From positions 69,393 to 133,392 of the forward strand of contig QCRN01000002.1 in NCBI GenBank assembly GCA_003211835.1: a stretch of DNA of 64,000 nucleotides, in the 5' to 3' direction. Source of the DNA: Pelagibacteraceae bacterium AG-461-B04 (GTDB taxonomy: Bacteria; Pseudomonadota; Alphaproteobacteria; Pelagibacterales; AG-422-B15). Under the pieces are notes generated by a model, which saw nothing but the letters and a program-made list of their open reading frames with translations, ran no database searches and had not been told where the DNA came from. Positions 21,230 through 40,566 of the stretch are shown piece by piece. The number at the start of each line of letters is the position of its first letter. Within the stretch, counting starts at the first letter, position 1. The translations under genes were made by a program, and so were the position numbers.

Positions 21230-21306
21230 TGGTGCGCCCAGAAGGATTCGAACCCTCAACCCTCAGATCCGAAGTCTGATGCTCTATCCAGTTGAGCTAT
21301 GGACGC
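21230..21306 (-). tRNA. tRNA-Arg (TCG)
   Basis: Reverse complement: GCGTCCA-TA-GCTCAACTGGATAGAGC-A-TCAGA-CTTCGGA-TCTGA-GGGTT-GAGGG-TTCGAAT-CCTTC-TGGGCGC-ACCA. Confidence 0.85.
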
Positions 21307-21330
21307 ATCTATATTATTATTTCAAGTAAC

Positions 21331-21753
21331 ATGCTTTTACTTAAGATACTAGAAAAATTAGGTAGGAAAAAGGTTGTTATGGATAGAGGTCCATCACATC
21401 CTGAATATTGCTTGGCAAAGCCTTGGACAGCAAGATATTATCTCTTATTTAGAAAAAGGCCTCGTTGGTTTCCTTTTAATATATTAATACATCATATTCT
21501 AGATGATGATCATGGTGTAGGTCTTCATAATCATCCTTTTCCATATATAACAATTATTGTTAGTGGAGGGTACTGGGAAACAGATATAAATAAAAATAAA
21601 ACCTGGAGAGGAAAATTCTATGTTGGATTTAGAAGCGCCGATAATCTGCACAGAGTTGACTTAGAGCCTGGGATCAAACCAGTCACCATTTATATTGCCG
21701 GTCCATACGGACTAAGAAAAAAAGGAAGAAGCAATTATGGCATTTCAAATTAA
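21331..21753 (+). CDS. Hypothetical protein with a cupin-like HxH motif
   Basis: The track ORF starts at 21292, inside tRNA-Arg. I place the start at the internal Met (MLLLKILEKL, 21331). Motif DDDHGVGLHNHPFPYITIIVSGGYWE. No function is recognised. Confidence 0.4.
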   Translation: MLLLKILEKLGRKKVVMDRGPSHPEYCLAKPWTARYYLLFRKRPRWFPFNILIHHILDDDHGVGLHNHPFPYITIIVSGGYWETDINKNKTWRGKFYVGFRSADNLHRVDLEPGIKPVTIYIAGPYGLRKKGRSNYGISN

Positions 21754-21993
21754 TTTATTTCTTAGCTGAGATCTTAATTGTCTATCTTTTTTTAATTGTA
21801 CCTCTCTTTTCATTGCTTCTGATTTGGAGAATAACTCTTCTTGATATAACAATTTCCATTTAGATCCTCGTGTAAACTTTGCTCCTTTAGATTCATTATG
21901 TGCTTTAAGTCTTTTTTTAATATCATTGCTCCAGCCTACATATGTTCGTACTTTTGGGTATTTCGTTCCGATGACGTAGACGAAGAATCTCAT
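21745..21993 (-). CDS. GIY-YIG nuclease-domain protein (UPF0213/YhbQ-like)
   Basis: 82 aa. Motif FFVYVIG...TYVGWSNDIKKRLKAHN...GAKFTRG. Confidence 0.75.
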   Translation of the reverse strand: MRFFVYVIGTKYPKVRTYVGWSNDIKKRLKAHNESKGAKFTRGSKWKLLYQEELFSKSEAMKREVQLKKDRQLRSQLRNKLI

Positions 21994-22279: not shown

Positions 22280-23410
22280 TTGATGTTTAAAGTACAAATC
22301 TCGGGAACTGGACTATACACACCCAAAGAAAAAATTTCTAATGAAGAATTAGTTGACTCGTACAATAAGTATGTGGATGAATTTAATTTATCAAACTCTA
22401 ACGATATAAATAATGGAAGTGTAGAGCCACTTGAAAAATCTAGCTCAGAGTTTATTGAAAAAGCATCAGGTGTAAAATCTAGATATGTTCAAAATAAATC
22501 AGGAATTTTGGATACATCCTTTATGCGTCCAAGACTTATTGAAAGATCTGAGGATCAAATATCCAATCTTGCAGAAATGGGAGTAATTGCAGCAAAAGAA
22601 GCTATAAAAAATTCCCAAGTCGATATTAAAGATATAAATGCTGTAATTGTTGCGTGCTCAAATTTAGAACGTGCCTACCCTGCTATAGCTATTGAAATCC
22701 AAAATGAATTAGGTATAGAGGGATTTGCATTTGACATGAATGTTGCCTGTTCCTCAGCTACTTTTGGAATTCAAGCCATTTTTGACATGATAAAAAGTGG
22801 GAGTATTACATCAGCCTTAATGGTCAATCCAGAAATTTGTACAGGTCATTTAAATTTCAAAGATAGGGATTGTCATTTTATATTTGGTGACGTTGCAACA
22901 GCTGTAGTTTTAGAGAGAATGAATGGGGAAATTCATAAAAACAATTCTTATGAAATACTTGGGACAAAACTCCTTACAGAGTTTTCTAATAATATAAGAA
23001 ATAATTATGGATTTCTGAATAGTTCTTCTCCCGAAGGAATCGGTAAGGCAGATAAACTGTTCCATCAAAATGGAAGAAAAGTATTCAAAGAAGTCATCCC
23101 TAAAGTTTCTAATTTAATAAAGGATCATTTAGAAGAAAATAAACTTTCCGCCGAAGATTTAAAGGGAATGTATTTGCATCAAGCAAATGAAAATATGAAT
23201 GTTCTTATTTCTAAATATGTACTTGGCAAAGAGGCGTCTAAAGATCTAGCTCCCGTCGTTCTTGATGAATATGCTAATACAAGTTCCGCAGGTTCAATAA
23301 TTGCTTTTCATAAACATAACGACTCACTAAAAAAAGATGATCTTGCAATTATTTGCTCTTTTGGGGCAGGTTATTCTGTGGGGAATGTTATTGTGAGAAA
23401 GATTGCTTAA
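22280..23410 (+). CDS. Long FabH-like beta-ketoacyl synthase III (thiolase fold)
   Basis: 376 aa. Cys-His-Asn triad contexts NVACSSATFG, YLHQANENMN and EYANTSSAGS. From memory, the N-terminal region ISGTGLYTP...FIEKASGVKSRY resembles the P. aeruginosa PA3286 class. The ATG at 22283 is probably the true start, since the track start is a TTG. Confidence 0.8.
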   Translation: MMFKVQISGTGLYTPKEKISNEELVDSYNKYVDEFNLSNSNDINNGSVEPLEKSSSEFIEKASGVKSRYVQNKSGILDTSFMRPRLIERSEDQISNLAEMGVIAAKEAIKNSQVDIKDINAVIVACSNLERAYPAIAIEIQNELGIEGFAFDMNVACSSATFGIQAIFDMIKSGSITSALMVNPEICTGHLNFKDRDCHFIFGDVATAVVLERMNGEIHKNNSYEILGTKLLTEFSNNIRNNYGFLNSSSPEGIGKADKLFHQNGRKVFKEVIPKVSNLIKDHLEENKLSAEDLKGMYLHQANENMNVLISKYVLGKEASKDLAPVVLDEYANTSSAGSIIAFHKHNDSLKKDDLAIICSFGAGYSVGNVIVRKIA

Positions 23411-23958
23411 AAATTTGGCTCCTTAGAGAAAAGCTTTCTTACTTTTGGTTCAAAGTATTCAAGAGAATAGGATTCATAATCTGGATCAAATGACTTTTGA
23501 TCCCACTTTTCACAAAAATCCACTGCATCTTGATAGTAAGGATGATCTTTGAATTTTTCTCTAGCATGTCGATCCCTTCCTATGTGATGAGCATAGTAAT
23601 ATTCTTGAAAAATCCCGTGATGAAGCATAATCCAATATACTTTTTCAGAGACATAGGGCCTTAAAACTGAGGCAACAAGTTGACTATGATTATATGGGGC
23701 AAGATTATCTCCAATATCATGTACAAGAGTTGCCACTACCATTTCTTCATCTGCGCCATCTTTTTCAGCTCGAGTTGCTGATTGAAGTGAATGCTCTAAC
23801 CTTGTTATTTGATAGCCATCAACTGAACTATCTAAATTTCTCAAAGCGTCTAATATTCTATCAGGAAGATCTTTTGAAAACTTTTCTTCATACTTACTTA
23901 AAAGATCATAATCTTCTTTTGTGCCGTCTTTCATCTGAGTAAATTTTACTTTTTCCAT
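23407..23958 (-). CDS. HD-domain protein, PhnZ/TmpB-like putative diiron oxygenase
   Basis: 183 aa. His/Asp ligand candidates LEHSLQSA (H56), LVHDIGD (H80-D81), YNHSQ (H91) and MLHHG (H113/114). The start codon directly abuts the stop of the upstream BBOX-like oxygenase (TAAATG). Confidence 0.6.
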   Translation of the reverse strand: MEKVKFTQMKDGTKEDYDLLSKYEEKFSKDLPDRILDALRNLDSSVDGYQITRLEHSLQSATRAEKDGADEEMVVATLVHDIGDNLAPYNHSQLVASVLRPYVSEKVYWIMLHHGIFQEYYYAHHIGRDRHAREKFKDHPYYQDAVDFCEKWDQKSFDPDYESYSLEYFEPKVRKLFSKEPNF

Positions 23959-25050
23959 TTATATTTCCTCTGATAATAATTTAAACTTACTTTCTGCGGA
24001 GTCATGGTCTATATATAATCCCTGCAGCCATCTATTGCCTTCAGCTGTATTATAACTTGTTCTGCCGTGAAGGGTTCGATAATTATTCATAATAATCAAA
24101 TCTCCCGGTTCTAAGCGAAACTTAAATATATATTTAGAAGAATTTATCATTTTATGCATTACTCTTTTTGACGCATAAAATTCATCAAGCTTTTTAGGGT
24201 CTTGATAAAAAACAAAATCCAGTCTGTTGCTATACTTTATTTGCTTTATCTCCCCTCGTTCACTTAACTTTATGATCTTGCCTGTTTTTTCCAGTATGGC
24301 ATCTTTGTCTTTAAATTTAAAATTGATAAGAGTATTCGTAAGAGTATTAAACGCATTTGGATTTTCATTTTTTAAGTCTTCTGCAACCTTAAACCCATCA
24401 ACAATTGTTGAGTCGCCTCCTTGGCAACTATTATGAATACAAAAAAGAAATTGAATAGAAGGTACTGGTTTTCGATATGGATTATCTGTATGAGACTCTA
24501 ATTCAATGGATGTATATGCTAAATCGTTTGGTTGTTTTTGAGACTTAACATTAAACAATTTTCCAAAATTAGTTTCTCTTATATATCCAATTTTTTTTGC
24601 AAAATTTATAATCTCACCATCTTCGGGTTTGAGTTTGCTGACAATTGCAAATCCGTATTTATGATAATATTCTAATATCTCATAAATTTGTTTATTTTCA
24701 TTTGCATTATAATCAAATTTAAGCTTTCTAAGTGATATACTGTCTTTATTCCAAAAAACTTTATCAGGAAGTCCTTTTGCTCTCTTTATTTCTTTAATTA
24801 AGTTTTTTATGCAATACTTAGCTACATGATTATCTGAGAATTTAATTAATAGTTTATCTTCGTCTAACTTATTTACTTCTTTGATTTCTAAATTTTCAAT
24901 GATTTTCTCTGGGTCATATAGTCGTTGTAGTGAATTTTGATCGACTGCTCCTTCTTCTAATGACCGTTCTCTCATCCATAAAGGATGAAGCTTATATTGC
25001 TCATCGCCAATAGAAAACCTTATTTCTTTTGAGTCATAATTAAAATCCAT
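23959..25050 (-). CDS. Gamma-butyrobetaine-hydroxylase-like Fe(II)/2OG oxygenase (TmpA-like candidate)
   Basis: 363 aa. N-terminal DUF971-like segment (LHPLWMRERS). TauD-fold facial triad ESHTDNPY (HxD) and RTLHGR. DLAYT, FLFCIHNSCQGGDSTIVDG and LQGLYID parallel the BBOX family. Confidence 0.65.
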   Translation of the reverse strand: MDFNYDSKEIRFSIGDEQYKLHPLWMRERSLEEGAVDQNSLQRLYDPEKIIENLEIKEVNKLDEDKLLIKFSDNHVAKYCIKNLIKEIKRAKGLPDKVFWNKDSISLRKLKFDYNANENKQIYEILEYYHKYGFAIVSKLKPEDGEIINFAKKIGYIRETNFGKLFNVKSQKQPNDLAYTSIELESHTDNPYRKPVPSIQFLFCIHNSCQGGDSTIVDGFKVAEDLKNENPNAFNTLTNTLINFKFKDKDAILEKTGKIIKLSERGEIKQIKYSNRLDFVFYQDPKKLDEFYASKRVMHKMINSSKYIFKFRLEPGDLIIMNNYRTLHGRTSYNTAEGNRWLQGLYIDHDSAESKFKLLSEEI

Positions 25051-25064
25051 AAAAAAATATAAAA

Positions 25065-27011
25065 CTAATTTTTTAATTCTTCAATATTTTCATATTCCGA
25101 TAAACAAGTAGGATTGGCTAAAGCCTCTAAATTCTTTATATTCATGCCATTGATTATATCTCTCACAGTAATTTCTGCTATTTTACCACTTCTTGTTCTA
25201 GGTATATCACTTACTTTAATAATTTTTGCGGGAACATGTCTTATAGAATTAGAAGATCTAATATTATATTTAATTCTATCAATAATAACTTGATCAAGTT
25301 CAATATCTTTTTGAAGTTTCACAAATAAAATAATTCTTGTGTCATTGTTCCAAGACTGGCCAACTACAATAGACTCAACAATTTCATCTATTTGCTCGAC
25401 AGACCTATATATTTCGGCAGTTCCAATTCTAATTCCACCAGGATTTAATGTTGAGTCTGACCGTCCGTAAATGACTATTCCATTATTTTGAGATATTTTA
25501 GCGTAATCACCTTGTGTCCATACATTCTTAAATTTTGAAAAGTATGATTTAATATATTTCTCTTTATTTAAGTCATCCCAAAATCCAATCGGCATAGATG
25601 GAAGTGGTGATTTACATACCAGCTCACCTTTTTGAAGCGTGCCCTGACCTTTTTCATCAAGAACATCTACATCTACCCCAAGACACTTACTTTGTATTTC
25701 GCCAGAGTAAACTGGCAACATTGGATTGCCGCCAACAAAGCAAGAAACGATGTCTGTCCCTCCACTAATGGACGCTAGATGTAAATCTTTTTTAATGAAT
25801 CCATACACATACTCAAAACTCTCACTTATAAGTGGCGACCCTGTGCTTAATATTGATTGAAGTTTACCTAAATTATATTTTTCTAGAATATTTACCTTAT
25901 CATTTCTTAAAGCATCAATAAATTTTGCACTTGTTCCAAAGCACGTTATTTCTTCTTCTTCAGCAATTTTAAAAAGGGTTTCTTTCTCTGGATAAAATGG
26001 GGATCCATCATAAAGTACTAATGAAACTCCTGACGCTAAACCTGTAATAAGCCAATTCCACATCATCCATCCACAGGTTGTATAATAAAATAATTTGTCA
26101 CCTATTTTAAGATCACAGTGAAGCTGTTGCTCCTTTGCATGTTGTAGAAGTGGTCCACCAGTATTATGAACTATGCATTTAGGTTTACCAGTTGTTCCAC
26201 TAGAATAAAGAATATACATTGGGTCATTAAATGAGTTTTCTTCGAAAATAATTTTTTCTTGATAAGTTTCTTTTTGAAAAATTGAATTTAAACTTATTTC
26301 ATCTATTCCTTTATCCAGTTTCTTGTCTGGATAATTAATACAAATGGTATGTTCGAGTGTTTTGATATTATTAATTACATTTTTTATTTTCTTTTCAATA
26401 TCAAATTTTTTTCCACCATATAAATAAATTTTAGAATATAACAATATTTTCGGTTTTATTTGGTTAAAACGATCTAAAATAGCTGCCTCGCCAAAATCTG
26501 GTGAGCAAGATGACCAGATCGCCCCAATAGAGTTCACCGCTAAAAATGCAATTAGTGTCTCAGCACTGTTTACCGCAACAGCCGTAATCCGATCTCCTTT
26601 TTTAACCCCTATAGATCTAAAATAGTTAGCTAATTTTGACGTTTTTGATACTAAATCTTCCTTATAATAACTTTTCTTGAAACCAAGTTCATTGATAAAG
26701 GTAATCGGGCATGAGTTAAGATTAGATAAAATATTTTCGGCATAATTAACTTTAATATTTTTAAAAAATTCTTGATTGTATATAAATTTATCCTTTTCAA
26801 TAACTGGGCTAGAGCTTCCTTTGTACTGTATGCCTAAATAATCTATTAAGCTTAACCAAAATTCAGCGGGATAACTAATGCTCCAGGACCAGATTTTACT
26901 ATAATCAAAACTAAATTGAATTTTGGTTTTTTCTTCTAAGAAAAGAAAATAATTATATAGGTTTGTTTTTTTTACTCTTTCCTTAGATGGGCTCCAAAGC
27001 AACCTTGGCAT
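25065..27011 (-). CDS. Acetoacetate--CoA ligase (acetoacetyl-CoA synthetase)
   Basis: 648 aa. Characteristic N-terminus LLWSPSKERVKKTNLYNYF...YSKIWSWSISYPAEFW. AMP-binding motifs YSSGTTGKPKC and YGRSDSTLNPGGIRIGTAEIY. Confidence 0.8.
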   Translation of the reverse strand: MPRLLWSPSKERVKKTNLYNYFLFLEEKTKIQFSFDYSKIWSWSISYPAEFWLSLIDYLGIQYKGSSSPVIEKDKFIYNQEFFKNIKVNYAENILSNLNSCPITFINELGFKKSYYKEDLVSKTSKLANYFRSIGVKKGDRITAVAVNSAETLIAFLAVNSIGAIWSSCSPDFGEAAILDRFNQIKPKILLYSKIYLYGGKKFDIEKKIKNVINNIKTLEHTICINYPDKKLDKGIDEISLNSIFQKETYQEKIIFEENSFNDPMYILYSSGTTGKPKCIVHNTGGPLLQHAKEQQLHCDLKIGDKLFYYTTCGWMMWNWLITGLASGVSLVLYDGSPFYPEKETLFKIAEEEEITCFGTSAKFIDALRNDKVNILEKYNLGKLQSILSTGSPLISESFEYVYGFIKKDLHLASISGGTDIVSCFVGGNPMLPVYSGEIQSKCLGVDVDVLDEKGQGTLQKGELVCKSPLPSMPIGFWDDLNKEKYIKSYFSKFKNVWTQGDYAKISQNNGIVIYGRSDSTLNPGGIRIGTAEIYRSVEQIDEIVESIVVGQSWNNDTRIILFVKLQKDIELDQVIIDRIKYNIRSSNSIRHVPAKIIKVSDIPRTRSGKIAEITVRDIINGMNIKNLEALANPTCLSEYENIEELKN

Positions 27012-27032
27012 ATCATAAAATTTTATTATTTC

Positions 27033-28457
27033 TTAAGCAATGTGAAGTGCTTTAGTTTCAAGGTAATCTTCTAGCCCCATGTCTCCACCTTCTCGGCCAT
27101 TACCAGATTCTTTATATCCTCCAAAAGGTGAACCATAATTATAACCACCGCCATTAACATGAACACCGCCTGCTCTTAATTGCCTTGAGACACGTTCAGC
27201 TCTTTCTTTATCTCCCGTTTGCAGATAGGCAGCAAGACCATAAGGAGTATCATTTGCTATTCTGATTGCCTCATCCTCATCATCAAAAGGGATTATCACT
27301 AGTACTGGACCAAATATTTCTTCTTGAGCAACTCTCATATTATTATTTACATCAGAAAAAATTGTTGGCTTTACAAACCATCCTTTTTCATGACCATCAG
27401 GCTTTCCAAGGCCCCCAGCTAGTAATTTTGCCCCCTCATCAATACCAACTTGAATCATATTTTGAACCCGATCAAATTGTATCTGATCAAAGAGTGGTCC
27501 GAGATGATCACCATCTAGTGTTGGATCACCTACCATAATTTCTTCAGCGGTTTTTTTTGCAATATCAACTACCTCATCGTAGCATTTTTTTTCTACCAGT
27601 AACCTTGTAGGAGCATCACAAGATTGTCCTGTATTAAACATACATTCATTTACTGAAGCTTTTACTTTTTCCTCTAAGTCACAATCCGCAAATACAATAT
27701 TTGGTGATTTGCCACCTAATTCTAATGTTACTTTTTTTACAGTCTCAGCTGACTCAATAGTAACTGACTTACCTCCTCTTTTTGAGCCAGTAAATGACAT
27801 CATTTCTATATCTGGATGCCGAGACATCGACACTCCTACTCCTTCTCCATCTCCATGTACTAAATTAAATACGCCATCAGGAACTCCAGCCTCATCAAGA
27901 ATTTCAGCGTAAATCATCGCTGATAAAGGTGTATGCTCAGATGGCTTTAAGATACATGTGCATCCTGTCGCAATAACTGGAAGGACTTTCAATGTTATTT
28001 GATTAATGGGCCAGTTCCAAGGAGTAATTAAACCACAAACTCCTATTGGCTCTTTTAATAGTACATCCGAATTGGAAAGAACAATTTTTTCTTCATGCTT
28101 CTTTAACGCATCAATAAAACCATCTAAATGTCCTATAGCAGCATCTGCCTGTGCATCTCGAGCCATTCTATGAGGAGCTCCCATTTCTGATGTCATCGCA
28201 TTAGCAAGATCTTCAAATCTTTTTTCAGAGATCAGCCGAATTTTATTTAGTAATTCTAAACGATCATTCTTTGTAGTTTTAGAAAAGGTATTAAATGCAT
28301 TTTTTGCAGCACTTACAGCCATATCTACATCTGTGGAATTACCAAGAATTATCTCACCTATCAAATCTTCGGTTGCTGGGTTGAGAACCGCCATTGTTTT
28401 AGTTGAATTGGGTTTTACCCATTTACCGTTAATATAAAATTTTTGAAGATTTTCCAT
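27033..28457 (-). CDS. NAD(P)-dependent aldehyde dehydrogenase
   Basis: 474 aa. Motifs ITPWNWP, FTGS, catalytic Glu in LELGGKSP, catalytic Cys in [12 protein letters not shown], and EEIFGPV. Substrate is not assignable from sequence alone. Confidence 0.85.
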
Positions 28458-28526
28458 TTTGTTTTTTATTACATACTATACTATTCAAATTGTAAATTCT
28501 TTTTAATATTGTACCTTCATTATCTT

Positions 28527-29411
28527 ATGAATAAAAATGTTATAATTTCTTGTGCAGTTACCGGATCAGGGGACTCTGTTGGAAAGCATCCTAATATTCC
28601 TGTTACTCCTCAACAAATAGCTGATGCATCTATTGAGGCTGCTAATGCTGGAGCTGCTATAGCCCATATTCATGTTAGAAATCCTGAAACTGGAAAGGGA
28701 TCTCGAGATAATGAGCTTTACAAAGAAGTAGTTAGCCGAATTAGAGATAGCGGGACTAATATCATAATTAATCTCACAAGTGGAATGGGAGGAGATATAG
28801 AAATTGGTCCAGAAGATGATTTATTAAACTTTGGTTCTAATACAGATTTTGTAAATGCACTTGAAAGATTGAGTCATGTTGAAGAACTACTTCCTGATAT
28901 ATGCTCCTTAGATTGTGGTACTCTAAATTTTGGTGATGGAAATATGATCTATGTTGGAACCCCTGAACAACTAAGAATAGGTGCTAAGAGAATTCAAGAA
29001 TTAGGAGTTAAACCAGAACTTGAAGTCTTTGATACAGGTCATTTATGGTTTGCAAATCAGATGTTAAAAGAAGGCTTACTAGATCAGCCATCATTGTTTC
29101 AAATTTGTCTAGGTATACCCTACGGTGCGCCTGCAACAACTGGGTCAATGAAAAATATGGTTGATATGATACCTAAAGGAAGTAACTGGGGCGCATTTGG
29201 AATCGGAATTAATCAAATGCCGATGGTAGCACAAGCAGTTTTATTAGGAGGCAATGTTAGAGTTGGACTTGAAGATAATCTTTATTTAGAAAAAGGTGTT
29301 TATGCTACGAATGGATCACTTGTTGAAAAAGCCACTACAATAATTAATAATTTAGGCTCAAATGTAATGGGTCCTGATGAAGCAAGAATACATCTTGGAT
29401 TAAAAAGTTGA
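28527..29411 (+). CDS. BKACE-family (DUF849) beta-keto acid cleavage enzyme, dehydrocarnitine-cleaving type by context
   Basis: Start moved to the internal Met ([13 protein letters not shown]). Motifs [11 protein letters not shown] and VRVGLEDN. Directly upstream of, and overlapping, the carnitine dehydrogenase gene. Confidence 0.8.
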
Positions 29412-30379
29412 AAAAAAAAATTGTTTCGATTATTGGAACAGGTGTAATTGGTGCTGGATGGGCGGCACGATTTCTTGCTAAAGGCTATATTGTTAAAGCT
29501 TATGACCAAAATATTGACTCACTTGAGAAATTAAAAAAAAATATTCGTTTTGCATTTAAAAGTCTTAAAAAGGTAGGTTTAAATAAAAATGCTTCATTGA
29601 AGAAACTTAAAGTTTTTACTAATCTGAATGACGCTTTACATGAAACAACCTTTGTTCAAGAAAACACACCTGAAAATGAAAAAATTAAAAAAAATATTCT
29701 AAAAAAAATTGATAATATCATTCCAAAAAATATTATAATTGCATCCAGTTCCTCTGGATTACTGCCATCAAAAATTCAATCTACATGTAAATTTCCAGAA
29801 AGGGTATTAATTGGACATCCATTTAATCCAGTATACTTGCTACCACTTGTTGAGATTGTAGCTGGTAAAAAGACTAGTCATACAAATGTAAAGAAATTAA
29901 AAAAAATATATGAATATATTGGAATGCGGCCCCTTGTTGTTCGAAAAGAGATAGAAGGATACATTTCAGATAGACTTCAAGAAGCTTTATGGCGTGAGGC
30001 CTTGCATATAATAAATGATGGCGTAGCATCAACTGAAGAAGTTGATGACGCTATTGTGTACGGGCCTGGATTAAGATGGGCTTTTATGGGAGTATGTTTA
30101 ACATTTCATTTAGCTGGTGGAGAAACGGGAATGAAACATATGCTAGAGCAGTTTGGTCCTGCTCTAAAGCTGCCTTGGACTAAATTGAAAGCACCTGAAT
30201 TATCAAGTAAACTAAAAAAATCAATGATTTCTGGCACGAAAAAACAGGCTGGGAAATTTAGTATCAAAGAGCTTGAGAAGCAAAGAGATTTATTTTTGAT
30301 TGAAATTATGAAAACTTTAAATAAAAATCAAAAGAATAAGTTTCCAAATTGGGACAAAAAATATAACAAATTTAAATAA
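29408..30379 (+). CDS. lcdH: L-carnitine 3-dehydrogenase
   Basis: 323 aa. Rossmann motif [15 protein letters not shown]. Motifs [32 protein letters not shown] and [18 protein letters not shown] match my memory of Pseudomonas carnitine dehydrogenase. No C-terminal thioesterase extension. Confidence 0.85.
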
Positions 30380-30382
30380 GCA

Positions 30383-31525
30383 ATGAGTCAAAATCCATCT
30401 ATATTATCATTGAAACGTAATGGAAAATCAATACTAGTTGATTGGAGCGATGGTGAACAAAGTAAATTTAATTTTTTATGGCTGAGAGATAATTGTCCAT
30501 CAGAAGTTCATCCAACCGCAAGAGAGAGAACTTTCAACCTTTTAACGGTTACAGATGATATTCACCCAAAGTCTTATAAAATAAATGATAAAGGGGCGCT
30601 TGAGATTGAATGGAGTGAAGGTGATCATACAAGCTACTATGATAGCGATTGGCTAAGACATAATTGCTACACACTCAAAAGTAAAAAAACATATATTTCG
30701 CCTTATTTTCTATGGGATCATAGTATAGAAACTAATTTTGAGGACATTCAAATAGATTATAAAGAAATTATTAGTGGAGATGATGGAATTAAAAAGTGGC
30801 TTGAGCAGCTTCACTACAAAGGTATTTCTATTGTTAAGAATGCACCTACGGATAAGGAATCTGGTTTTGATGTAATTGCTAATATTAGTCACCATAGAGA
30901 AACATTTTTTAAAACACCTTTTGAAGTTATTGATATTCCTAATCCTAACAATTCTGCTTACACCGCAGCTGCATTAAGGAACCATTTAGATCTTCCATAC
31001 TATGAAATAGCACCAGGATATCAATTCTTGCATTGCTTGATCAATAATGCTTCTGGAGGCGAATCGGTTGCGGTAGATGGGTTCAAAGTTGCTAGTTACA
31101 TGAAAGAAAATTATACAGAATATTTTGAAACTCTCTTAGAGACGCCTGTAAAATTTGTAAATAGAGATTATACTTCAAATGCTATAAGGGTAATGCATAA
31201 ACCTCTATTTTCTTTAGATCATAATAATGATTTTAACGATATAAGGTTTAGTGTTGCTTATATGGGAGTTATGGACTGTAACCCCAACCAAATGGATAAG
31301 TTTTACGAAGCTTACCGAAAACTAATCGCTTTACTTCACGATCCTATATTTGAAATAAATTTCAGACTTAAAGCTGGGGATATATTCAGCTTTAATAATA
31401 GACGAGTACTTCACGGTCGAAAAGAATACGATGCCAATTCTGGTGAGAGACACTTACAGGGATATTATATCGATAGAGATGAAATAATAGGAAGACTAAA
31501 TTATTTGAATAATTTAAATCCTTAA
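30383..31525 (+). CDS. Gamma-butyrobetaine dioxygenase (BBOX-type Fe(II)/2OG oxygenase)
   Basis: 380 aa. N-terminal FNFLWLRDNCPSEVH (DUF971). Motifs NSAYTAAALRNHLDLPYYE (HxD), PGYQFLHC, RVLHGR and LQGYYIDRDE. Confidence 0.75.
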   Translation: MSQNPSILSLKRNGKSILVDWSDGEQSKFNFLWLRDNCPSEVHPTARERTFNLLTVTDDIHPKSYKINDKGALEIEWSEGDHTSYYDSDWLRHNCYTLKSKKTYISPYFLWDHSIETNFEDIQIDYKEIISGDDGIKKWLEQLHYKGISIVKNAPTDKESGFDVIANISHHRETFFKTPFEVIDIPNPNNSAYTAAALRNHLDLPYYEIAPGYQFLHCLINNASGGESVAVDGFKVASYMKENYTEYFETLLETPVKFVNRDYTSNAIRVMHKPLFSLDHNNDFNDIRFSVAYMGVMDCNPNQMDKFYEAYRKLIALLHDPIFEINFRLKAGDIFSFNNRRVLHGRKEYDANSGERHLQGYYIDRDEIIGRLNYLNNLNP

Positions 31526-32595
31526 TTTTTAAGAATATCGGCAACATTATTTCTTGAGATTAGGCCTACGAATTTATTCTTATCATCAAATACATTTAAT
31601 TCATGCTCGCTTTCAAGTATTTTTGGCAAACAGCTTTCTATATTGTCATCTAGTTTTACAAAAGCATCAGAATTATTCTGTACTCCTGAAAAATTCATAA
31701 TTGATTTTATTTTTAAAACTTTAGCTCTATTAACGTCTTTTACAAAGTTTTTGACGTACTCATCAGCTGGACTCATTAATATTTCCTCAGCAGTGCCATC
31801 TTGAACAAGTTTACCGCCGTTAAGTATTGAAATACGATCACCTAATTTTAATGCCTCATCAAGATCATGGGTTATAAACATAATAGTTTTTTTTAAATTT
31901 TTTTGTAACTCTAATAGCTGGTCTTGCATATCAGTTCTGATTAGTGGATCAAGAGCACTAAAAGCCTCATCCATCAGCAGAATATCTGGATCAGTTGCAA
32001 GAGCTCTTGCTAAGCCGACCCTTTGTTGCATTCCTCCTGATAACTGATTAGGAAACTTATATTCAAAACCATTTAAGCCCACTTTATCAATCCAGAACTT
32101 TGCTTTGTGATTTGACTCTGCTTTTTCTATATTTTTTATACTGAGACCAAATTTAACATTATCAATAATATTCTGATGAGGAAAAAGAGCAAACCTCTGA
32201 AAGACCATACCAGTTCGATTTCTTCTGAATTCAAGTAATTCAGAGTTATTCAGTTTTGTAATATCTTGTTCATCAATTAATACACTTCCCTCTGTTGGTT
32301 CAATCAATCTGTTTATATGTCTAATTAATGTTGACTTGCCTGACCCAGATAAACCCATGACTACCTGTATAGATTGTTCAGCAACATTCAAATTGATGTC
32401 ATCTAAACCTAATACATGATTATATTTAGTAAGTAGTTCATCTTTTGACATACCATTACTTACTTTTGGAATATATTTTTTAGAGTTATTCCCAAAAATT
32501 TTATAAAGGTTAGATATTTTGATCTTCGTCTTATTCACGAGAACCTGACCTATGTTGTTGTAATCTTTTTCCAAAAGATTGAGAAACTCGATCAA
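31522..32595 (-). CDS. proV: Glycine betaine/quaternary amine ABC transporter, ATP-binding protein with C-terminal CBS region
   Basis: Walker A GLSGSGKST, signature LSGGMQQRV, Walker B ILLMDEAFS. The track start overlaps proW by 65 nt. A GTG at 32538 (VNKTKIKISNLYKIFG) overlaps the proW stop as GTGAATAA and is the more likely start. Confidence 0.85.
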   Translation of the reverse strand: MIEFLNLLEKDYNNIGQVLVNKTKIKISNLYKIFGNNSKKYIPKVSNGMSKDELLTKYNHVLGLDDINLNVAEQSIQVVMGLSGSGKSTLIRHINRLIEPTEGSVLIDEQDITKLNNSELLEFRRNRTGMVFQRFALFPHQNIIDNVKFGLSIKNIEKAESNHKAKFWIDKVGLNGFEYKFPNQLSGGMQQRVGLARALATDPDILLMDEAFSALDPLIRTDMQDQLLELQKNLKKTIMFITHDLDEALKLGDRISILNGGKLVQDGTAEEILMSPADEYVKNFVKDVNRAKVLKIKSIMNFSGVQNNSDAFVKLDDNIESCLPKILESEHELNVFDDKNKFVGLISRNNVADILKN

Positions 32596-33427
32596 ATATT
32601 ATTGCTAATGCGACAATAGCAAGTCCATTAAGCAATCCCATAGTAAAATACTGGTTGGTAATTGCCTTTAATACTGGCTGACCAAGACCCTTAACTCCAA
32701 TCATCGAAGCTATAACAACCATTGCTAGTGCCATCATTATAGTTTGGTTAATTCCTGCAAATATAGTAGGTAAAGCAAGTGGCAATTGAACTCTAAATAA
32801 CTTTTGCCTCTTATTTGCGCCAAAAGCATCTGCCGCTTCAAGAACTTCCTTATCAACTTCTCTAATTCCTAAGTCAGTTAGTCTAATAATTGGGGGGATG
32901 GCATAAATAATAACTGCGAGTAAACCTGGGATTTTTCCAATTCCTAAAAGCATTACGACTGGAATCAAATACACAAATGAAGGCATAGTTTGCATCACAT
33001 CAAGAATAGGGGTAATGGCGGCTCGAGCTCGGTCAGAGTTTGACATTGCAATGCCAATTGGTATTCCAAGACCTATAGACATGAAAGTACATACGCCAAT
33101 GATACTGACAGTTGACATTGTATCTTCCCACATACCAAAGTAGCCTATAAGAAGTAGTGCAAATAATGATCCAATTGTTAGATAGATACTTCTGCTGCCC
33201 AAATAAACTAGTATAAGTATTACTAAAATTACTAATGGCCAAGGTGAGTTTTGTAATAGTTTTTCAAACCAAACTAAAAAATATAATACAGGATCAAATA
33301 CAGCTTCAATTGCATCGCCATATTCTCTTGAGAAGTTCCTATAAGCCCCATCTATGGACTTTTTAAATATCCGAAGACTTTCCTTACTCATTTCAGGAAA
33401 AGTGATAAATAATTCTGATAAATTCAT
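32531..33427 (-). CDS. proW: Glycine betaine/quaternary amine ABC transporter permease
   Basis: 298 aa, multi-TM. EAA-loop EAADAFGANKRQKLFRVQLPLA. Confidence 0.85.
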   Translation of the reverse strand: MNLSELFITFPEMSKESLRIFKKSIDGAYRNFSREYGDAIEAVFDPVLYFLVWFEKLLQNSPWPLVILVILILVYLGSRSIYLTIGSLFALLLIGYFGMWEDTMSTVSIIGVCTFMSIGLGIPIGIAMSNSDRARAAITPILDVMQTMPSFVYLIPVVMLLGIGKIPGLLAVIIYAIPPIIRLTDLGIREVDKEVLEAADAFGANKRQKLFRVQLPLALPTIFAGINQTIMMALAMVVIASMIGVKGLGQPVLKAITNQYFTMGLLNGLAIVALAIIFDRVSQSFGKRLQQHRSGSRE

Positions 33428-33437
33428 TGAATGTAAT

Positions 33438-33458
33438 GCGGGCTAATTATTAGCCCGC
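33438..33458 (-). promoter_or_regulatory. Intercistronic stem-loop between proX and proW
   Basis: GCGGGCTAA-TTA-TTAGCCCGC is a perfect 9-bp GC-rich stem, exceptional in this AT-rich DNA. It lies 12 nt after the proX stop and 10 nt before the proW start. Confidence 0.5.
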
Positions 33459-33470
33459 AATATTATTTTT

Positions 33471-34478
33471 TTATAAAGCTGCTTCTACTTTTGAACGTGC
33501 ACTACTGTCTACCCAGTCATGCCATTCAGTGTAATTTTCTAAGAAGTAAATTGCAGTGTCTTCACCAGTTGCCTGATTATCATCTTTCCAAGCAAGCAAG
33601 GCATTTACAGTTGAGTTAGGAAGTGCTCGTTTTGAGATATATTCCATACCCGTTGCTGACTCATTTTTGAAGTTGTCAGTCACAACTGTATATACTTCAG
33701 ATACAACCCATGCGTTAGGTTTTGGATTTGCACATCCGTCTTGAGAAGTACAATTGTCCCACTCTTCTTTACTGTGTTCTACTCCAAAGCTAAGTTTTTT
33801 CATTGGGTATTTTCCCAATACAGCTGTTGGTGCCCAGTAATATCCAAGCCATCCCTCGCCTTTGTTATAAGCTTCAGCAATTGCTCCAGCAAGAGCGCCA
33901 CCAGAACCGGGATCTACAAGCCTAAAACCTTTGGCTTCCATTCCATATGCATTAAACAAATTACCAGTACTTATTTGACAATTCCAACCTGAGGGACAAG
34001 TATAAATTGCACCATTTCCTCCTTCAGGATGAGGAAATAATTCAGGACGTTCTAGTACATCATATACAGTTTGAATGTTGGGGTTAGCATCGGCCATATA
34101 TTGCGGTATCCACCAGCCTTCTTCACCAGTGTCAGATAAAACTTCAGCTGCGTAATGTAATCTTCCTTCGCTCGTTGCTGCATCAAGTGCAACTCTAACA
34201 GCATTTATCCATAATTCAGGAGCTACATCTGGCTCACCTTTTTCCATCATAGATGTCGCGGTTGGCATTGTATCACCTGGAACAAGCTCTACATCACAAC
34301 CATAACCATTTTCAAGAATCATCTTATCGACGTGCGCAAACATTTCAGCAGATGCCCAGTTCATTTCAGCAACTGTTATTGTACCGCATGCATTGGCTGT
34401 CGAACTAAGAGATCCGAAACTTACTGCAAAGACAGCAGCAAAAAAAATTCTCTTAAAAAAATTCATTATTTTCTCCAA
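33471..34478 (-). CDS. proX: Glycine betaine/quaternary amine ABC transporter substrate-binding protein
   Basis: 335 aa. Signal peptide ending SSTANA-C. Trp/Tyr-rich (WWIPQY, GYYWAP), as expected for an aromatic-cage betaine binder. First gene of proX-proW-proV. GC content is visibly higher than in the neighbours. Confidence 0.8.
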   Translation of the reverse strand: MEKIMNFFKRIFFAAVFAVSFGSLSSTANACGTITVAEMNWASAEMFAHVDKMILENGYGCDVELVPGDTMPTATSMMEKGEPDVAPELWINAVRVALDAATSEGRLHYAAEVLSDTGEEGWWIPQYMADANPNIQTVYDVLERPELFPHPEGGNGAIYTCPSGWNCQISTGNLFNAYGMEAKGFRLVDPGSGGALAGAIAEAYNKGEGWLGYYWAPTAVLGKYPMKKLSFGVEHSKEEWDNCTSQDGCANPKPNAWVVSEVYTVVTDNFKNESATGMEYISKRALPNSTVNALLAWKDDNQATGEDTAIYFLENYTEWHDWVDSSARSKVEAAL

Positions 34479-34565
34479 TTTGTTTTATTAGTAATCGATT
34501 GAAACATATAACTAGGTCTCTATCTAGGTAAAAAAAGTATAATTTTTTTTAAATATTCAAAAACG

Positions 34566-35462
34566 CTAAACTACTGATTTATATAATTTATTTCCAGCAT
34601 AAATTTCAATCAATGGAGCGCTCATAACAAATACCGCGCCAATAAATTCTCTCATCGTAATAATTTCGTTGGCTAAAAGATATGCAGATATAATGCCAAT
34701 AACAACTTCGAACATAAGTAAAATTCCAGCTCTACCTGGATCTACTTGATCTTGGCCGAAAGTGATAAGCCAGTATCCAGGCAGCAACCAAATGAAAGCA
34801 AAAATGAGAATGATTATGTAAGTATTATATATTATTTCAGTATTGAAACCCGCAAGTACTTGTCCATTAGGTAAAAGTGTCGCAATAATAACAAATAAAC
34901 CACCAATGAGAATAAAGATTGAAGTTCCAAAGTTAACGTCCAATTCCTTATTAATTCTTATGATAGTTGCACAAACTGACCACAAAAAACCTGAGGCGAT
35001 GCCAAATATATCAGCAAGAGTGCTTGGCAAAATATTACCTTTATCTAACCCTGTTATAATAAAAAGACCCGTGAAACCTGCTGCTATGGAAAAAGCCCTA
35101 TATATAGTTAAAGGAGTTCTTAAAAATACAATCTCAATAATTGTACTCCAAACAGCTGTAAGGTAAAAAAATATTAAAATCCTTGCAACGTTACCGCGTA
35201 ACAGTCCCTCATTATATAGGCACATTGCCGCTGCACCAGCAGTCGCTGCAATTATTGTAAGAATTATATTTTTTTTAGTAAGTAAATGTAGGTTCCGCAG
35301 TGAAAAACTTAGAAGAAAAAAACCAGCAAGCATAAAGCTTAATGTTAGAGGAATTGCATTATTGCTTGCATACTCATTTAACAAACGAAGAGGATACCAC
35401 CATGTTCCCCAAAGCAGGGTAGATAATACTATTGCCAAACTTGGATTTAAGTTTTTTAACAT
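34566..35462 (-). CDS. EamA/DMT-family transporter (10 TM)
   Basis: 298 aa, highly hydrophobic, with two internally repeated 5-TM halves. Confidence 0.7.
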   Translation of the reverse strand: MLKNLNPSLAIVLSTLLWGTWWYPLRLLNEYASNNAIPLTLSFMLAGFFLLSFSLRNLHLLTKKNIILTIIAATAGAAAMCLYNEGLLRGNVARILIFFYLTAVWSTIIEIVFLRTPLTIYRAFSIAAGFTGLFIITGLDKGNILPSTLADIFGIASGFLWSVCATIIRINKELDVNFGTSIFILIGGLFVIIATLLPNGQVLAGFNTEIIYNTYIIILIFAFIWLLPGYWLITFGQDQVDPGRAGILLMFEVVIGIISAYLLANEIITMREFIGAVFVMSAPLIEIYAGNKLYKSVV

Positions 35463-35507
35463 TATCTAATGTTGTACTATAAATATAATGTTTGATAAAA
35501 TCATTTC

Positions 35508-37100
35508 ATGAAATTAAATAACTTTGATTATATTATAATTGGAGCTGGTAGCGCTGGTTGTGTGCTAGCTAATCGCCTTTCATCAAATACCTCTATTAAT
35601 ATCCTACTTATAGAATCGGGACCTTCAGACAAGACTTGGAAAACTGCAATGCCTGCAGCACTGCTTTATACAATGCACGATCCAAAATATAACTATCTTT
35701 ATGAATCAGAGCCAGAACCATTTATGCATAATAGGACTATGTTCTGCCCAAGAGGTAAGATGTTGGGAGGAAGTTCCTCGCACAATGGAATGGTTCATGT
35801 TAGAGGCAATGCAAAAGATTTTGATAACTGGGGCCAATTAGGTTTAACAGATTGGACTTACGATAAAGTTTTACCCTATTTTAAAAAATCTGAGTCAGTT
35901 GAGGGCTTGGACTCAAATTTTCGGGGAGACTCAGGACCTTTGAAACTGTCAAGATCCACAAATGGTAATATTCTTAGTCAAGTTTATTTAAATGCCGCGC
36001 AACAAGCTGGGTATCAAATAAATAATGATATGAATGGCAAAAAACAAGAAGGTTTTGGTTTAATGGATACAACCATTTTTAATGGAAAGAGACAAAGTAC
36101 GAGCGTTACGTATCTTCATCCAATAAAACACAGATCTAACTTGGAAATATTAACGAACGTAACTGTAAATAAGATACTATTTGAAAATAAAAAAGCTGTT
36201 GGAGTTGAATGCAAAGCGAATGGTAAAAATAAAAAGTATTTTTCAACTAGAGAGGTCCTTCTTTCCGCTGGGGCTATAAATTCGCCTCATTTACTCATGC
36301 TTTCTGGAATTGGTCCAGAAAATGAATTATCAAAACATAGTATTGAGCCAGTAGAGTGTTTGGAGGGAGTTGGTAAAAACTTACAAGATCATCTTGAAAC
36401 CTATGTTCAATATAAATGTAAAAAACCTGTAACACTGCACAGTGCTCAGAATCCATTAAAAATGGCATTGATAGGTGCCGAGTGGTTTTTGTTTAAAACA
36501 GGTGTTGCTGCACACTCTAATCTAGAAACAGGTGGCTTTGTGAGTAGCAATGAAATGTCTGATTATCCAAATATACAATTCCATTTTTTTCCATCTTTAG
36601 TTTTAGATCATGGTAGAAAGAGTTCTACCTGCCATGCTTTTCAAGCCCATGTTGGACCGATGCGACCTACTAGCAGAGGATCAGTAAAATTAAAATCAAA
36701 TAATCCAAATGATGCACCTTCAATCCAGTTCAATTATATGCAAACCGAACATGATCTTAGAGAAATGCGGGAAGGAATAAAAATTGCAAGGGAAATATTT
36801 AATCAAAAAGAATTCGATGAATATAGAGGGGATGAAATCTCACCAGGAAGCAATATAAATAATGATGAAGATCTTAATAATTTTATAAGAGATAAAGGAG
36901 ATACTGCATACCACCCATCATGTACGTGTAAAATGGGAAAAGATGATCTATCAGTGGTAGACGAGGAACTCAAAGTATATGGAATAGATAGTTTAAGGGT
37001 CGTAGATGCATCAATTATGCCTAATATCATTACTGGTAATTTAAACGCATCAACAGTAATGATTGCTGAAAAAGCGTCTGATATAATTGTAAATAATTAA
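35508..37100 (+). CDS. GMC-family FAD oxidoreductase, choline dehydrogenase-like
   Basis: 530 aa. Motifs DYIIIGAGSAGCVLANRLS, GGSSSHNGMVHVRG, YHPSCTCKMG and VVDASIMP. Context next to the betaine transporter. Confidence 0.8.
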   Translation: MKLNNFDYIIIGAGSAGCVLANRLSSNTSINILLIESGPSDKTWKTAMPAALLYTMHDPKYNYLYESEPEPFMHNRTMFCPRGKMLGGSSSHNGMVHVRGNAKDFDNWGQLGLTDWTYDKVLPYFKKSESVEGLDSNFRGDSGPLKLSRSTNGNILSQVYLNAAQQAGYQINNDMNGKKQEGFGLMDTTIFNGKRQSTSVTYLHPIKHRSNLEILTNVTVNKILFENKKAVGVECKANGKNKKYFSTREVLLSAGAINSPHLLMLSGIGPENELSKHSIEPVECLEGVGKNLQDHLETYVQYKCKKPVTLHSAQNPLKMALIGAEWFLFKTGVAAHSNLETGGFVSSNEMSDYPNIQFHFFPSLVLDHGRKSSTCHAFQAHVGPMRPTSRGSVKLKSNNPNDAPSIQFNYMQTEHDLREMREGIKIAREIFNQKEFDEYRGDEISPGSNINNDEDLNNFIRDKGDTAYHPSCTCKMGKDDLSVVDEELKVYGIDSLRVVDASIMPNIITGNLNASTVMIAEKASDIIVNN

Positions 37101-37369
37101 TTAATTTCAGTGATAATCTGGTTTTTCTTAGAGTCGTAAATATATACTGGACCATCAAAACATTTGAGCAATATTTTTTGATCTTCAAGTTTAATGACAT
37201 CTTCAATGCCTGAAGTTCCACATGTGCTATGAAATTCAGTCTCATTGGTGTTTTCGAAAAAATCAACATTTTTGGATCTTTCGATTACAGTTGTGATAAC
37301 AACAGTTGTACCAACAATAATTAAAAATCCTAAAAAGATAACTATGAATAGTAAAATTCTCTGGTTCAT
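37097..37369 (-). CDS. Small membrane-anchored hypothetical protein
   Basis: 90 aa. One N-terminal TM helix (ILLFIVIFLGFLIIVGTTVVITTVI). No recognised motif. Fills the otherwise empty gap. Confidence 0.4.
   Translation of the reverse strand: MNQRILLFIVIFLGFLIIVGTTVVITTVIERSKNVDFFENTNETEFHSTCGTSGIEDVIKLEDQKILLKCFDGPVYIYDSKKNQIITEIN

Positions 37370-38392: not shown

Positions 38393-40566
<2,174 letters not shown>

Follow-up and report, generated by a model that had tools for sequence, protein, structure and literature searches.

A predicted modular island for quaternary-ammonium osmolytes in Pelagibacteraceae, with a conserved core of acetoacetyl-CoA synthetase, TmpA-like dioxygenase and HD protein

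Does the cluster of catabolic genes found in one SAR11 genome encode four defined routes to glycine betaine, or a more modular set of functions for quaternary-ammonium compounds? The question is raised by an island of about 15 kb, at positions 22280-37100 of a 64,000-nucleotide window (the whole stretch of DNA that was analysed; contig QCRN01000002.1, positions 69,393 to 133,392) from Pelagibacteraceae bacterium AG-461-B04. A first-pass annotation recognized here a minus-strand operon of aldehyde dehydrogenase (ALDH), acetoacetyl-CoA synthetase (AACS), a dioxygenase resembling gamma-butyrobetaine hydroxylase (BBOX) and an HD-domain protein; a divergent plus-strand operon of BKACE, L-carnitine dehydrogenase (LcdH) and a second BBOX-type enzyme; the proXWV transporter genes; an EamA transporter; and a choline-dehydrogenase-like GMC oxidoreductase. 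All these genes are present, with strand and order as described, and the organism, taken to be of the SAR11 type, is confirmed as a member of Pelagibacteraceae. The interval given for the island does enclose the named genes; its first position, 22280, opens a FabH-like gene that the annotation had omitted. The four routes predicted to converge on glycine betaine fared less evenly: AACS, the choline-dehydrogenase subfamily assignment and the logic of carnitine breakdown stand, whereas the betaine-aldehyde dehydrogenase (BADH) and the use of trimethylaminoethylphosphonate (TMAEP) do not. Judging from sequence comparisons, the locus is rather likely to be a modular Pelagibacteraceae catabolic island for quaternary-ammonium osmolytes, not a set of four fully specified routes. 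Genes were called from a listing of open reading frames (ORFs) together with Pfam and NCBIfam scans, and scores are given in bits against curated cut-offs.

The cluster is conserved yet modular: its invariant core is AACS-TmpA-like-HD (TmpA-like denoting the 363-aa dioxygenase of the minus-strand operon), not the carnitine genes, which, like the ALDH and proXWV, are separable modules. When one genome per species was scanned, relatives of the HD protein turned up in 338 genomes, and the window proteins were mapped onto the best 80 of these, all of them Pelagibacteraceae. In tier 1 (HD identity 93-99%; L002-L014), the window's exact order is found in the 11 loci with enough flanking sequence. 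The 17 tier-2 loci with enough flank (76-80%) display the order BBOX-LcdH-BKACE-ALDH-AACS-TmpA-like-HD-FabH, and the four loci of tier 2b (77-79%; L036, L038, L040 and L043) the order proX-proW-proV-BBOX-LcdH-BKACE-AACS-TmpA-like-HD, without ALDH; an EamA gene adjoins proX in L036, L040 and L043. The neighbourhood, whose conservation had been left for checking, is thus kept across Pelagibacteraceae: BBOX-LcdH-BKACE/(ALDH)-AACS-TmpA-like-HD recurs in 32 of 32 tier 1-2b loci with enough flank (11+17+4), and all seven genes of the two operons occur together in 28 loci (11 of tier 1 and 17 of tier 2). BKACE, beside LcdH, is 85-98% conserved in tiers 1-2b. Tier 3 (74%; L044-L046) retains only AACS-TmpA-like-HD, and the trio immediately follows an OpuAC-type ABC transporter different from that of the window. 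In 44 of 44 complete tier 1-3 loci, the gene just before HD is the TmpA-like one, and AACS is co-oriented and immediately upstream of this pair in every tier 1-3 locus that reaches far enough upstream; ALDH is absent from L036, L038, L040, L041, L043 and L044-46. Finally, the 35 loci of tier 4 (66-67%) contain an HD paralogue without the hydroxylase, located between cvpA-purF and DUF255-gshA-gshB.

The surroundings of these loci vary. Most tier-2 loci have an M24 peptidase gene where the window has proV beside BBOX (L016:1055-2425). The second OpuA-type transporter of tier 3 (L044:250-6871) consists of an ATPase, a fused 706-aa double permease and an OpuAC binding protein; genes for an Fe-dependent alcohol dehydrogenase and an EamA protein are close by. 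The tier-4 paralogue (L047-L081, e.g. L048:9998-10558) keeps all diiron ligands, has no hydroxylase partner and lies in a housekeeping context (MMPL, cvpA, purF, HD, DUF255/thioredoxin-like, gshA-like, gshB, EamA).

The core dioxygenase is related both to BBOX and to TmpA. Its best NCBIfam match is the TmpA model (NF049936; 339 bits versus 400, and 336 for the tier-3 orthologue); the BBOX model gives 293 versus 415, and the trimethyllysine dioxygenase model (TMLD) gives 186 bits, the lowest of these three related models. The best PDB match is likewise TmpA (6npb, 197 bits). When aligned with TmpA and human BBOX (hBBOX), the protein keeps the Fe ligands H187, D189 and H328 and the Arg that binds 2-oxoglutarate (2OG), and has an aromatic cage formed by F162, F166, Y179 and a Tyr; the corresponding trimethylammonium cage of BBOX is formed by Y177, W181, Y194 and Y366 (PMC13257696). 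Among the phosphonate ligands of TmpA, given as N187, N287 and R288 (PMC9296572), the equivalents of N287 and R288 are retained as N275 and R276, whereas the position of N187, which is also that of the BBOX carboxylate ligand N191, is occupied by D176 in 44 of 44 orthologues. The entire signature (F162, F166, D176, Y179, H187, D189, S274-N275-R276, H328) is kept in the 44 of 44 SAR11 orthologues. As judged from the alignment, D176 speaks against a straightforward fit of a phosphonate or carboxylate there, because an acidic side chain would sit where a hydrogen-bond donor to the substrate anion normally lies.

The HD protein has no Pfam match, and its matches to the TmpB (38.0 bits, cut-off 300) and Phn-HD (42.3 versus 214.6) models are confined to about 40 residues that surround the first His and the HD dyad. 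A census of the family, for which 1.84 billion representatives were scanned, yielded 2284 clusters at E values up to 0.001. Across 44 diverse members that were aligned, H56, H80, D81, H91, H114 and D153 are nearly invariant; they align with the PhnZ diiron ligands H34, H58, D59, H80, H104 and D161, and a profile built from this alignment finds PhnZ and TmpB with E ~1e-14. The AlphaFold (AF2) model of the protein has a pLDDT of 97.5, and its only significant Foldseek neighbours are PhnZ, TmpB and then MIOX (TM 0.63-0.69, 20-25% identity). Given the retained ligands, the profile matches and the structural neighbours, the protein can be assigned to the HD diiron-oxygenase fold class and is a predicted diiron oxygenase. 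On the same kind of comparison it is no TmpB orthologue, because its TmpB score is so far below the cut-off, its identity to these enzymes is low, and the YxxE loop and His62 are both replaced. The YxxE loop (Y24, E27) gates the substrate in PhnZ/TmpB (PMC8177086), and PhnZ His62 contacts the substrate hydroxyl (PMC7916636). In 81 of 81 SAR11 copies, V or L46 is found at the position of Y24, Y49 at that of E27, D84 at that of PhnZ H62 and E150 at that of PhnZ R158. Some sources annotate this SAR11 family as 'predicted HD phosphohydrolase'. In a literature search, we found no paper on the HD family or on the SAR11 TmpA-like/HD pair.

The hydroxylase and HD enzyme are predicted to be functionally coupled because their genes abut, with a 0-bp gap, and because homologues of the HD protein occur joined to TauD-type domains within one polypeptide of 596-701 aa. 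Such TauD/BBOX-like-HD fusions (P0141, P0144, P0173, P0197, P0200, P0210, P0340; L086-L088) come from Saprolegnia, Dracoamoeba, Chromera and eukaryote-like marine contigs, and their TauD domains are of two flavours, one with Asp/SxR that scores best on TmpA and the other with Asn/NNA that scores best on BBOX.

The wider distribution of the HD family, pieced together from individual contig look-ups, points to quaternary-amine and CoA-linked catabolism, not phosphonate use, because its neighbours include Rieske, BKACE, 3HCDH, OpuAC, CoA ligase, ECH and ALDH genes and no phosphonate genes: phn, pst and pho genes were found in none of the HD-family contexts examined. In another lineage, an HD homologue lies near OpuAC and permease genes, a TMADH-like flavoprotein, DAO and a sulfatase; other copies adjoin ECH or ALDH or, in Cupriavidus, TctC, LysR and hydantoinase genes. 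On alphaproteobacterial contigs (L089:8001-9829, L090:1440-3268), a 45% identical homologue is followed directly by a Rieske/Ring_hydroxyl_A oxygenase (CntA/GbcA-like), under a divergent LysR gene; near pairs of this type are found either BKACE, 3HCDH and SDR genes or GCV_T, two CoA ligases, ECH and ALDH. The Rieske oxygenase may serve the HD family as a hydroxylase partner of another kind. A further homologue (P0324; 51 contigs of up to 208 kb; L091:8001-8561, L092:4563-5123) is encoded in a dense, mostly unannotated same-strand array that looks viral and includes two 2OG-FeII_Oxy_5 genes, an HNH gene and a Polbeta-like gene.

These observations bear on the reading put forward in the first-pass annotation, in which four defined routes include the conversion of TMAEP to glycine betaine and phosphate by a TmpA/TmpB-type pair, so that the island would also scavenge phosphorus. 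The top rank of TmpA among both the NCBIfam and the PDB matches of the dioxygenase is in its favour, as are the retained equivalents of Asn287 and of Arg288, the latter TmpA-specific, and the presence of an HD partner with the diiron motif and the PhnZ/TmpB fold. However, the dioxygenase falls short of the TmpA cut-off (339 < 400) and the HD protein far short of the TmpB one (38 versus 300); the residue at TmpA N187 is Asp in all 44 orthologues, YxxE, His62 and Arg158 are replaced in all 81 HD copies, and phosphonate or phosphate genes are missing from the HD-family contexts examined. The TMAEP route is the weakest supported of the four, and the scheme that contains it is unlikely.

The carnitine module appears, from family enzymology and tight conserved linkage, to be the best-supported route of the island. 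The 323-aa LcdH-like protein matches NF005471 best (371.7 versus 414; the next, unrelated model, a 3-hydroxyacyl-CoA dehydrogenase, gives 231) and is a short form, which matches NF005716 at positions 6-312 of 495 only and has no C-terminal extension. The 380-aa BBOX-like protein has TIGR02409 as its best match (304.9 versus 414.75); in a comparison of the BBOX carboxylate contacts Asn191 and Asn292/293, it keeps the Asn at hBBOX N191, as well as the aromatic cage and the Fe ligands, and has S-V-A at positions 292-294, without the second Asn. The best PDB match of BKACE is 3c6c (335 bits). AACS passes both relevant curated thresholds (748 versus 521 for the acetoacetate-CoA ligase model; the tier-3 orthologue scores 756.2), and the proposed activation of acetoacetate to acetoacetyl-CoA is borne out to that extent. 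The proposed path from gamma-butyrobetaine through carnitine to betainyl-CoA and acetoacetate holds insofar as the genes are co-conserved and fit the enzymology of their families; it is qualified by the sub-threshold LcdH and BBOX scores and by the lack of a thioesterase. No betainyl-CoA thioesterase domain was detected in any ORF of the 19-41 kb region, so that the step from betainyl-CoA to glycine betaine has no candidate enzyme in the island. A hidden thioesterase was considered in the ORFs at 21292-21753 and 37097-37369, neither of which has family or PDB matches; the first contains a cupin-like HxH motif and no hotdog fold.

The choline route is partly upheld. The GMC protein passes the choline-dehydrogenase subfamily model PRK02106 (769.4 versus 605) and scores 700.1 versus 732.1 on the betA equivalog TIGR01810, so that its step, from choline to betaine aldehyde, is plausible. 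The ALDH, by contrast, matches the BADH models TIGR01804 at 428.9 versus 668.6 and PRK13252 at 406.4 versus 593, and an HpaE-type model higher, at 448; no equivalog is passed, and the closest solved structures are unassigned ALDHs (3i44, 6x9l, 3ty7). By these scores it is not a recognisable betaine-aldehyde dehydrogenase, and its assignment to the second step is weak, because the gene lies in the other operon, is not BADH-like and is dispensable in some variants.

The statements that the island is served by a single ABC importer and has no regulator in or beside it both hold: a ProU/OpuA-type proXWV is present (Pfam OpuAC, BPD_transp_1, ABC_tran), no helix-turn-helix (HTH)-type regulator was found in 19-41 kb, and no Rfam riboswitch in 21-38.5 kb. 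Expression of the island thus appears constitutive or globally controlled. A promoter scan did no better than shuffled sequence (61 sites versus 69.7 expected). The 43-bp proX-proW gap contains a perfect, GC-rich hairpin with a 10-bp stem at 33437-33459 (TGCGGGCTAAT TAT TAGCCCGCA), which may set the ratio of the binding protein to the permease and ATPase.

The preferred reading, a modular catabolic island, can be laid out in three parts. In module A, whose steps follow from family enzymology and conserved context, the BBOX-like enzyme would most likely hydroxylate gamma-butyrobetaine to carnitine, the LcdH-like enzyme most likely oxidize carnitine to 3-dehydrocarnitine, and BKACE convert the latter, with acetyl-CoA, to betainyl-CoA and acetoacetate; AACS would recover the acetoacetate as acetoacetyl-CoA, and a thioesterase from outside the island would be needed to release glycine betaine. 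Module B, the TmpA-like dioxygenase and HD enzyme, is the constant core and, from the gene layout, is predicted to be always co-transcribed with AACS and sometimes with ALDH. Its dioxygenase would most likely hydroxylate the carbon beta to the charged head group, and the HD enzyme, in a four-electron oxidation, would then cut the bond next to the carbinol to leave glycine betaine. Because the active-site signature departs from that of TmpA/TmpB, the substrate is expected to be not TMAEP but another quaternary-ammonium (or sulfonium) compound, and the bond cut is most probably a C-C bond. Module C (ProXWV, EamA and GMC) would provide uptake and probably choline oxidation. A demethylation route from glycine betaine to glycine is known in SAR11, and the glycine betaine formed by the island would feed it.

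The two-oxygenase mechanism is probably right in kind, and there is a recent precedent for cutting a C-C bond, in an alpha-hydroxy acid, by a 2OG hydroxylase acting with an HD oxygenase, SmaO/SmaX (PMC12186529). A more specific proposal, which we advance tentatively and rate at somewhat less than an even chance, is that the TmpA-like/HD pair is a new, abundant marine two-oxygenase system for the oxidative C-C cleavage of a non-phosphonate trimethylammonium (or dimethylsulfonium) compound to glycine betaine, with beta-alanine betaine or another carboxylate betaine as candidate substrates.

Several points weigh against the modular catabolic reading. Every substrate assignment in it derives from sequence; the LcdH, BBOX-type, TmpA, betA and BADH scores are all below the NCBIfam equivalog cut-offs; a thioesterase for betainyl-CoA is missing from the region searched; and two of the three TmpA phosphonate ligands (the Asn and Arg288) are retained, which leaves room for TMAEP. 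Many members of the HD family stand alone, such as the 66-67% identical paralogue in 35 SAR11 genomes, and the chemistry of the family may need no prior hydroxylation. Moreover, loci that lack BKACE (L044-46) still have AACS beside the TmpA-like/HD pair; the canonical role of AACS therefore may not be the whole story. Acetoacetate was considered, from this linkage, as a product of the HD reaction and was not adopted, no plausible natural substrate having been found.

Two further explanations carry little probability. The first would join all seven genes in one linear pathway, in which a longer trimethylammonium compound (e.g. a trimethyl-amino acid) is converted to gamma-butyrobetaine or carnitine by the TmpA-like/HD pair, alone or together with ALDH, as in eukaryotic carnitine biosynthesis, and BBOX, LcdH, BKACE and AACS then degrade the product. 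Such a pathway would account for the co-conservation of the divergent operon pair in 28 loci and would be in keeping with the BBOX-type-HD fusions of eukaryotes; the Asp at the BBOX N191 position would also suit an ammonium-bearing substrate, and trimethyllysine hydroxylase has Asp at this position. Yet the TMLD model scores lowest of the three (186 bits), so that trimethyllysine-type chemistry is kept only as an improbable rival; the cage geometry matches that of TmpA and BBOX, which hydroxylate the carbon beta to the nitrogen; and tier 3 keeps AACS-TmpA-like-HD with a transporter of its own and no BBOX, LcdH or BKACE nearby.

In the second explanation, about equally doubtful, the locus is a mosaic without a shared product, a recombination-prone flexible region beside a betaine transporter in which ALDH, GMC and the HD protein act on unrelated substrates. 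The ALDH, proVWX and carnitine genes have indeed been gained and lost independently, the ALDH matches no specific subfamily model, and a related Arctic island has been reported as horizontally transferred (PMC12421898). L003-L014 elsewhere match the window at 90-99% identity, but their proV identities form two groups (74-76% or 93-98%), as do those of proW (87-89% or 99-100%), and this bimodality among near-identical loci suggests a recombination breakpoint at the BBOX/proV junction. Against a mere mosaic, each module points to trimethylammonium compounds (the aromatic cages, OpuAC, LcdH/BKACE, the choline-dehydrogenase-like GMC), and in unrelated alphaproteobacteria, too, genes of the HD family are accompanied by the same gene families. 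Lastly, a role in osmoprotection or partial reversal, that is, uptake of glycine betaine and its interconversion with carnitine or choline as compatible solutes, is very improbable: the Arctic SAR11 island has been interpreted as a survival aid through glycine betaine (PMC12421898), and field tracing moved label from glycine betaine into carnitine and gamma-butyrobetaine, for which CDH/BKACE reversal was proposed (PMC9321204), but the two oxygenase steps, which need O2, and the AACS step, which needs ATP, would, from family chemistry, be irreversible and catabolic, and methyltransferases for glycine-betaine synthesis were not found in the island.

The features of the island are listed in Table 1. 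Genes of the minus-strand operon (ALDH-AACS-dioxygenase-HD) are separated by 21, 14 and 0 bp, and those of the plus-strand operon (BKACE-LcdH-BBOX) by a 4-bp overlap and then a 3-bp gap; proV-proW-proX is convergent to the BBOX operon, EamA comes next and GMC is divergent. The BKACE start is likely to be the ATG at 28527 because the Pfam BKACE alignment begins at residue 33. The FabH-like gene is convergent with the HD gene, which it overlaps by 4 bp, and adjoins it in all tier 1-3 loci; it is a conserved flank, not a pathway member.

Table 1. Genes of the island, with positions in the window and the matches on which they are named
Feature	Position	Strand	Matches
FabH-like KAS III (beta-ketoacyl-ACP synthase III)	22280-23410	+	PRK07515 598 bits (cut-off 304); Pfam ACP_syn_III
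HD protein, 183 aa	23407-23958	-	no Pfam match; weak NCBIfam, PDB and fold matches only
TauD/GBBH-like (TmpA/BBOX-like) Fe(II)/2-oxoglutarate dioxygenase, 363 aa	23959-25050	-	Pfam TauD 1e-40
AACS (acetoacetate-CoA ligase)	25065-27011	-	TIGR01217 748.2 bits (cut-off 520.9); PRK03584 841 (cut-off 639)
ALDH	27033-28457	-	Pfam Aldedh 524 bits
BKACE	28443 (listed ORF, TTG; likelier ATG 28527) to 29411	+	Pfam BKACE 318 bits
LcdH-like, 323 aa	29408-30379	+	Pfam 3HCDH_N and 3HCDH; NF005471
BBOX-like dioxygenase, 380 aa	30383-31525	+	Pfam GBBH-like_N and TauD; TIGR02409
proV	31522-32595	-	Pfam ABC_tran
proW	32531-33427	-	Pfam BPD_transp_1
OpuAC/proX	33471-34478	-	Pfam OpuAC; PDB 7yle 238 bits
EamA/DMT-family transporter	34566-35462	-	Pfam EamA, two repeats
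GMC oxidoreductase, choline-dehydrogenase-like	35508-37100	+	PRK02106; betA TIGR01810

One flank of the island comprises an HDAC-like gene, Sua5/YciO, a small 2OG oxygenase, a 153-aa ORF, a GIY-YIG ORF and a tRNA gene; the other, past GMC, contains RluD, a sigma-70-family gene (38393-39280, 1.3 kb past the GMC gene), purA and glmM. The tRNA gene (21233-21306, minus strand) and the 82-aa ORF with the GIY-YIG domain (21745-21993) lie close to the island border, before the FabH-like gene, and a 2OG-FeII_Oxy_5 gene is found at 20623-21222 in the conserved flank. The 153-aa ORF (21292-21753) has neither a family nor a PDB match; it is 72-99% conserved in all tiers and, with its HxH...H motif, looks cupin-like. 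Its listed start overlaps the tRNA gene, and M14 is the likelier start. In a first homology search, SAR11 copies of 93-98% identity made up most of the matches.

SAR11 bacteria have to obtain glycine or glycine betaine from outside and are the dominant agents in the turnover of dissolved osmolytes. An island that enlarges the range of compounds convertible to glycine betaine accordingly bears on the marine cycling of carbon, nitrogen and methyl groups, in which field tracer work has flagged carnitine and gamma-butyrobetaine as unexplained parts (PMC9321204). If correct, the two-oxygenase proposal would give canonical diiron HD oxygenases a new reaction and reveal an overlooked sink for a marine osmolyte; the TmpA-like/HD pair, being small, strictly conserved and confidently modelled, with a defined set of candidate substrates, is well suited to enzymology. 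Claims that SAR11 bacteria use phosphonates through TMAEP or PhnZ-type enzymes should not rest on this pair, the annotation of which in such terms would be premature. Published estimates of phnZ abundance in the surface ocean diverge by orders of magnitude, from <1% to ~20% of bacteria (PMC10574752), and the abundant SAR11 look-alike family could contribute to the high ones.

Comparison with known systems shows both kinship and difference. As in bacterial carnitine catabolism of the cdh/bco type, the LcdH-like gene adjoins BKACE, an AACS is present for acetoacetate and a betaine-type binding protein is encoded nearby; here, however, LcdH is short, neither a thioesterase nor a CdhR-type regulator was found, and a BBOX-type gene is part of the same operon. 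The closest described unit is an island of 17-20 genes in Arctic SAR11 Ia.1 (mBio 2025), interpreted as serving glycine-betaine acquisition (PMC12421898). It too lies beside a betaine ABC transporter and includes ALDH, carnitine dehydrogenase, BKACE, two BBOX-type genes, choline dehydrogenase and DMT/EamA. In contrast to the present island, it is arranged in another order and contains HADH, glyoxalase, GPDP, alcohol dehydrogenase (ADH), class II aldolase, an acyl-CoA thioesterase and an SMR transporter (PMC12421898); ACOT, class II aldolase, GPDP, LGL and SMR genes are all absent from 19-41 kb of the window. AACS and HD, both present here, are not listed for the Arctic island, which is polar-enriched (PMC12421898), whereas the present one occurs in AG-series single-cell genomes and metagenome-assembled genomes. 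The suggestion that such an architecture had not been described as a unit therefore survives only for the AACS/HD content and the gene order: a SAR11 island converging on glycine betaine is no longer a new idea, and the present gene content and order differ from the published one.

With TmpA/TmpB of Leisingera caerulea, which convert TMAEP to glycine betaine and phosphate, and with PhnY*/PhnZ, the core pair shares the adjacency of an Fe/2OG hydroxylase and an HD protein, the H..HD..H..H..D diiron motif and the fold; TmpA, the top-scoring characterised relative of the 363-aa dioxygenase, also has the trimethylammonium cage. The SAR11 pair differs in that its scores are below the curated thresholds and its context is one of CoA ligase and ALDH, not of phosphorus acquisition. 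SmaO/SmaX resembles the pair in the two-step logic, applied to a carboxylate instead of a phosphonate, and in the occurrence of enzyme fusions in both systems (PMC12186529). SmaX, however, has a single Fe, held by two His and one Asn, and its substrate is a peptide-bound hydroxy-aspartate (PMC12186529), whereas in the SAR11 HD protein all six diiron ligands are present and the partner is a hydroxylase of the BBOX/TmpA type.

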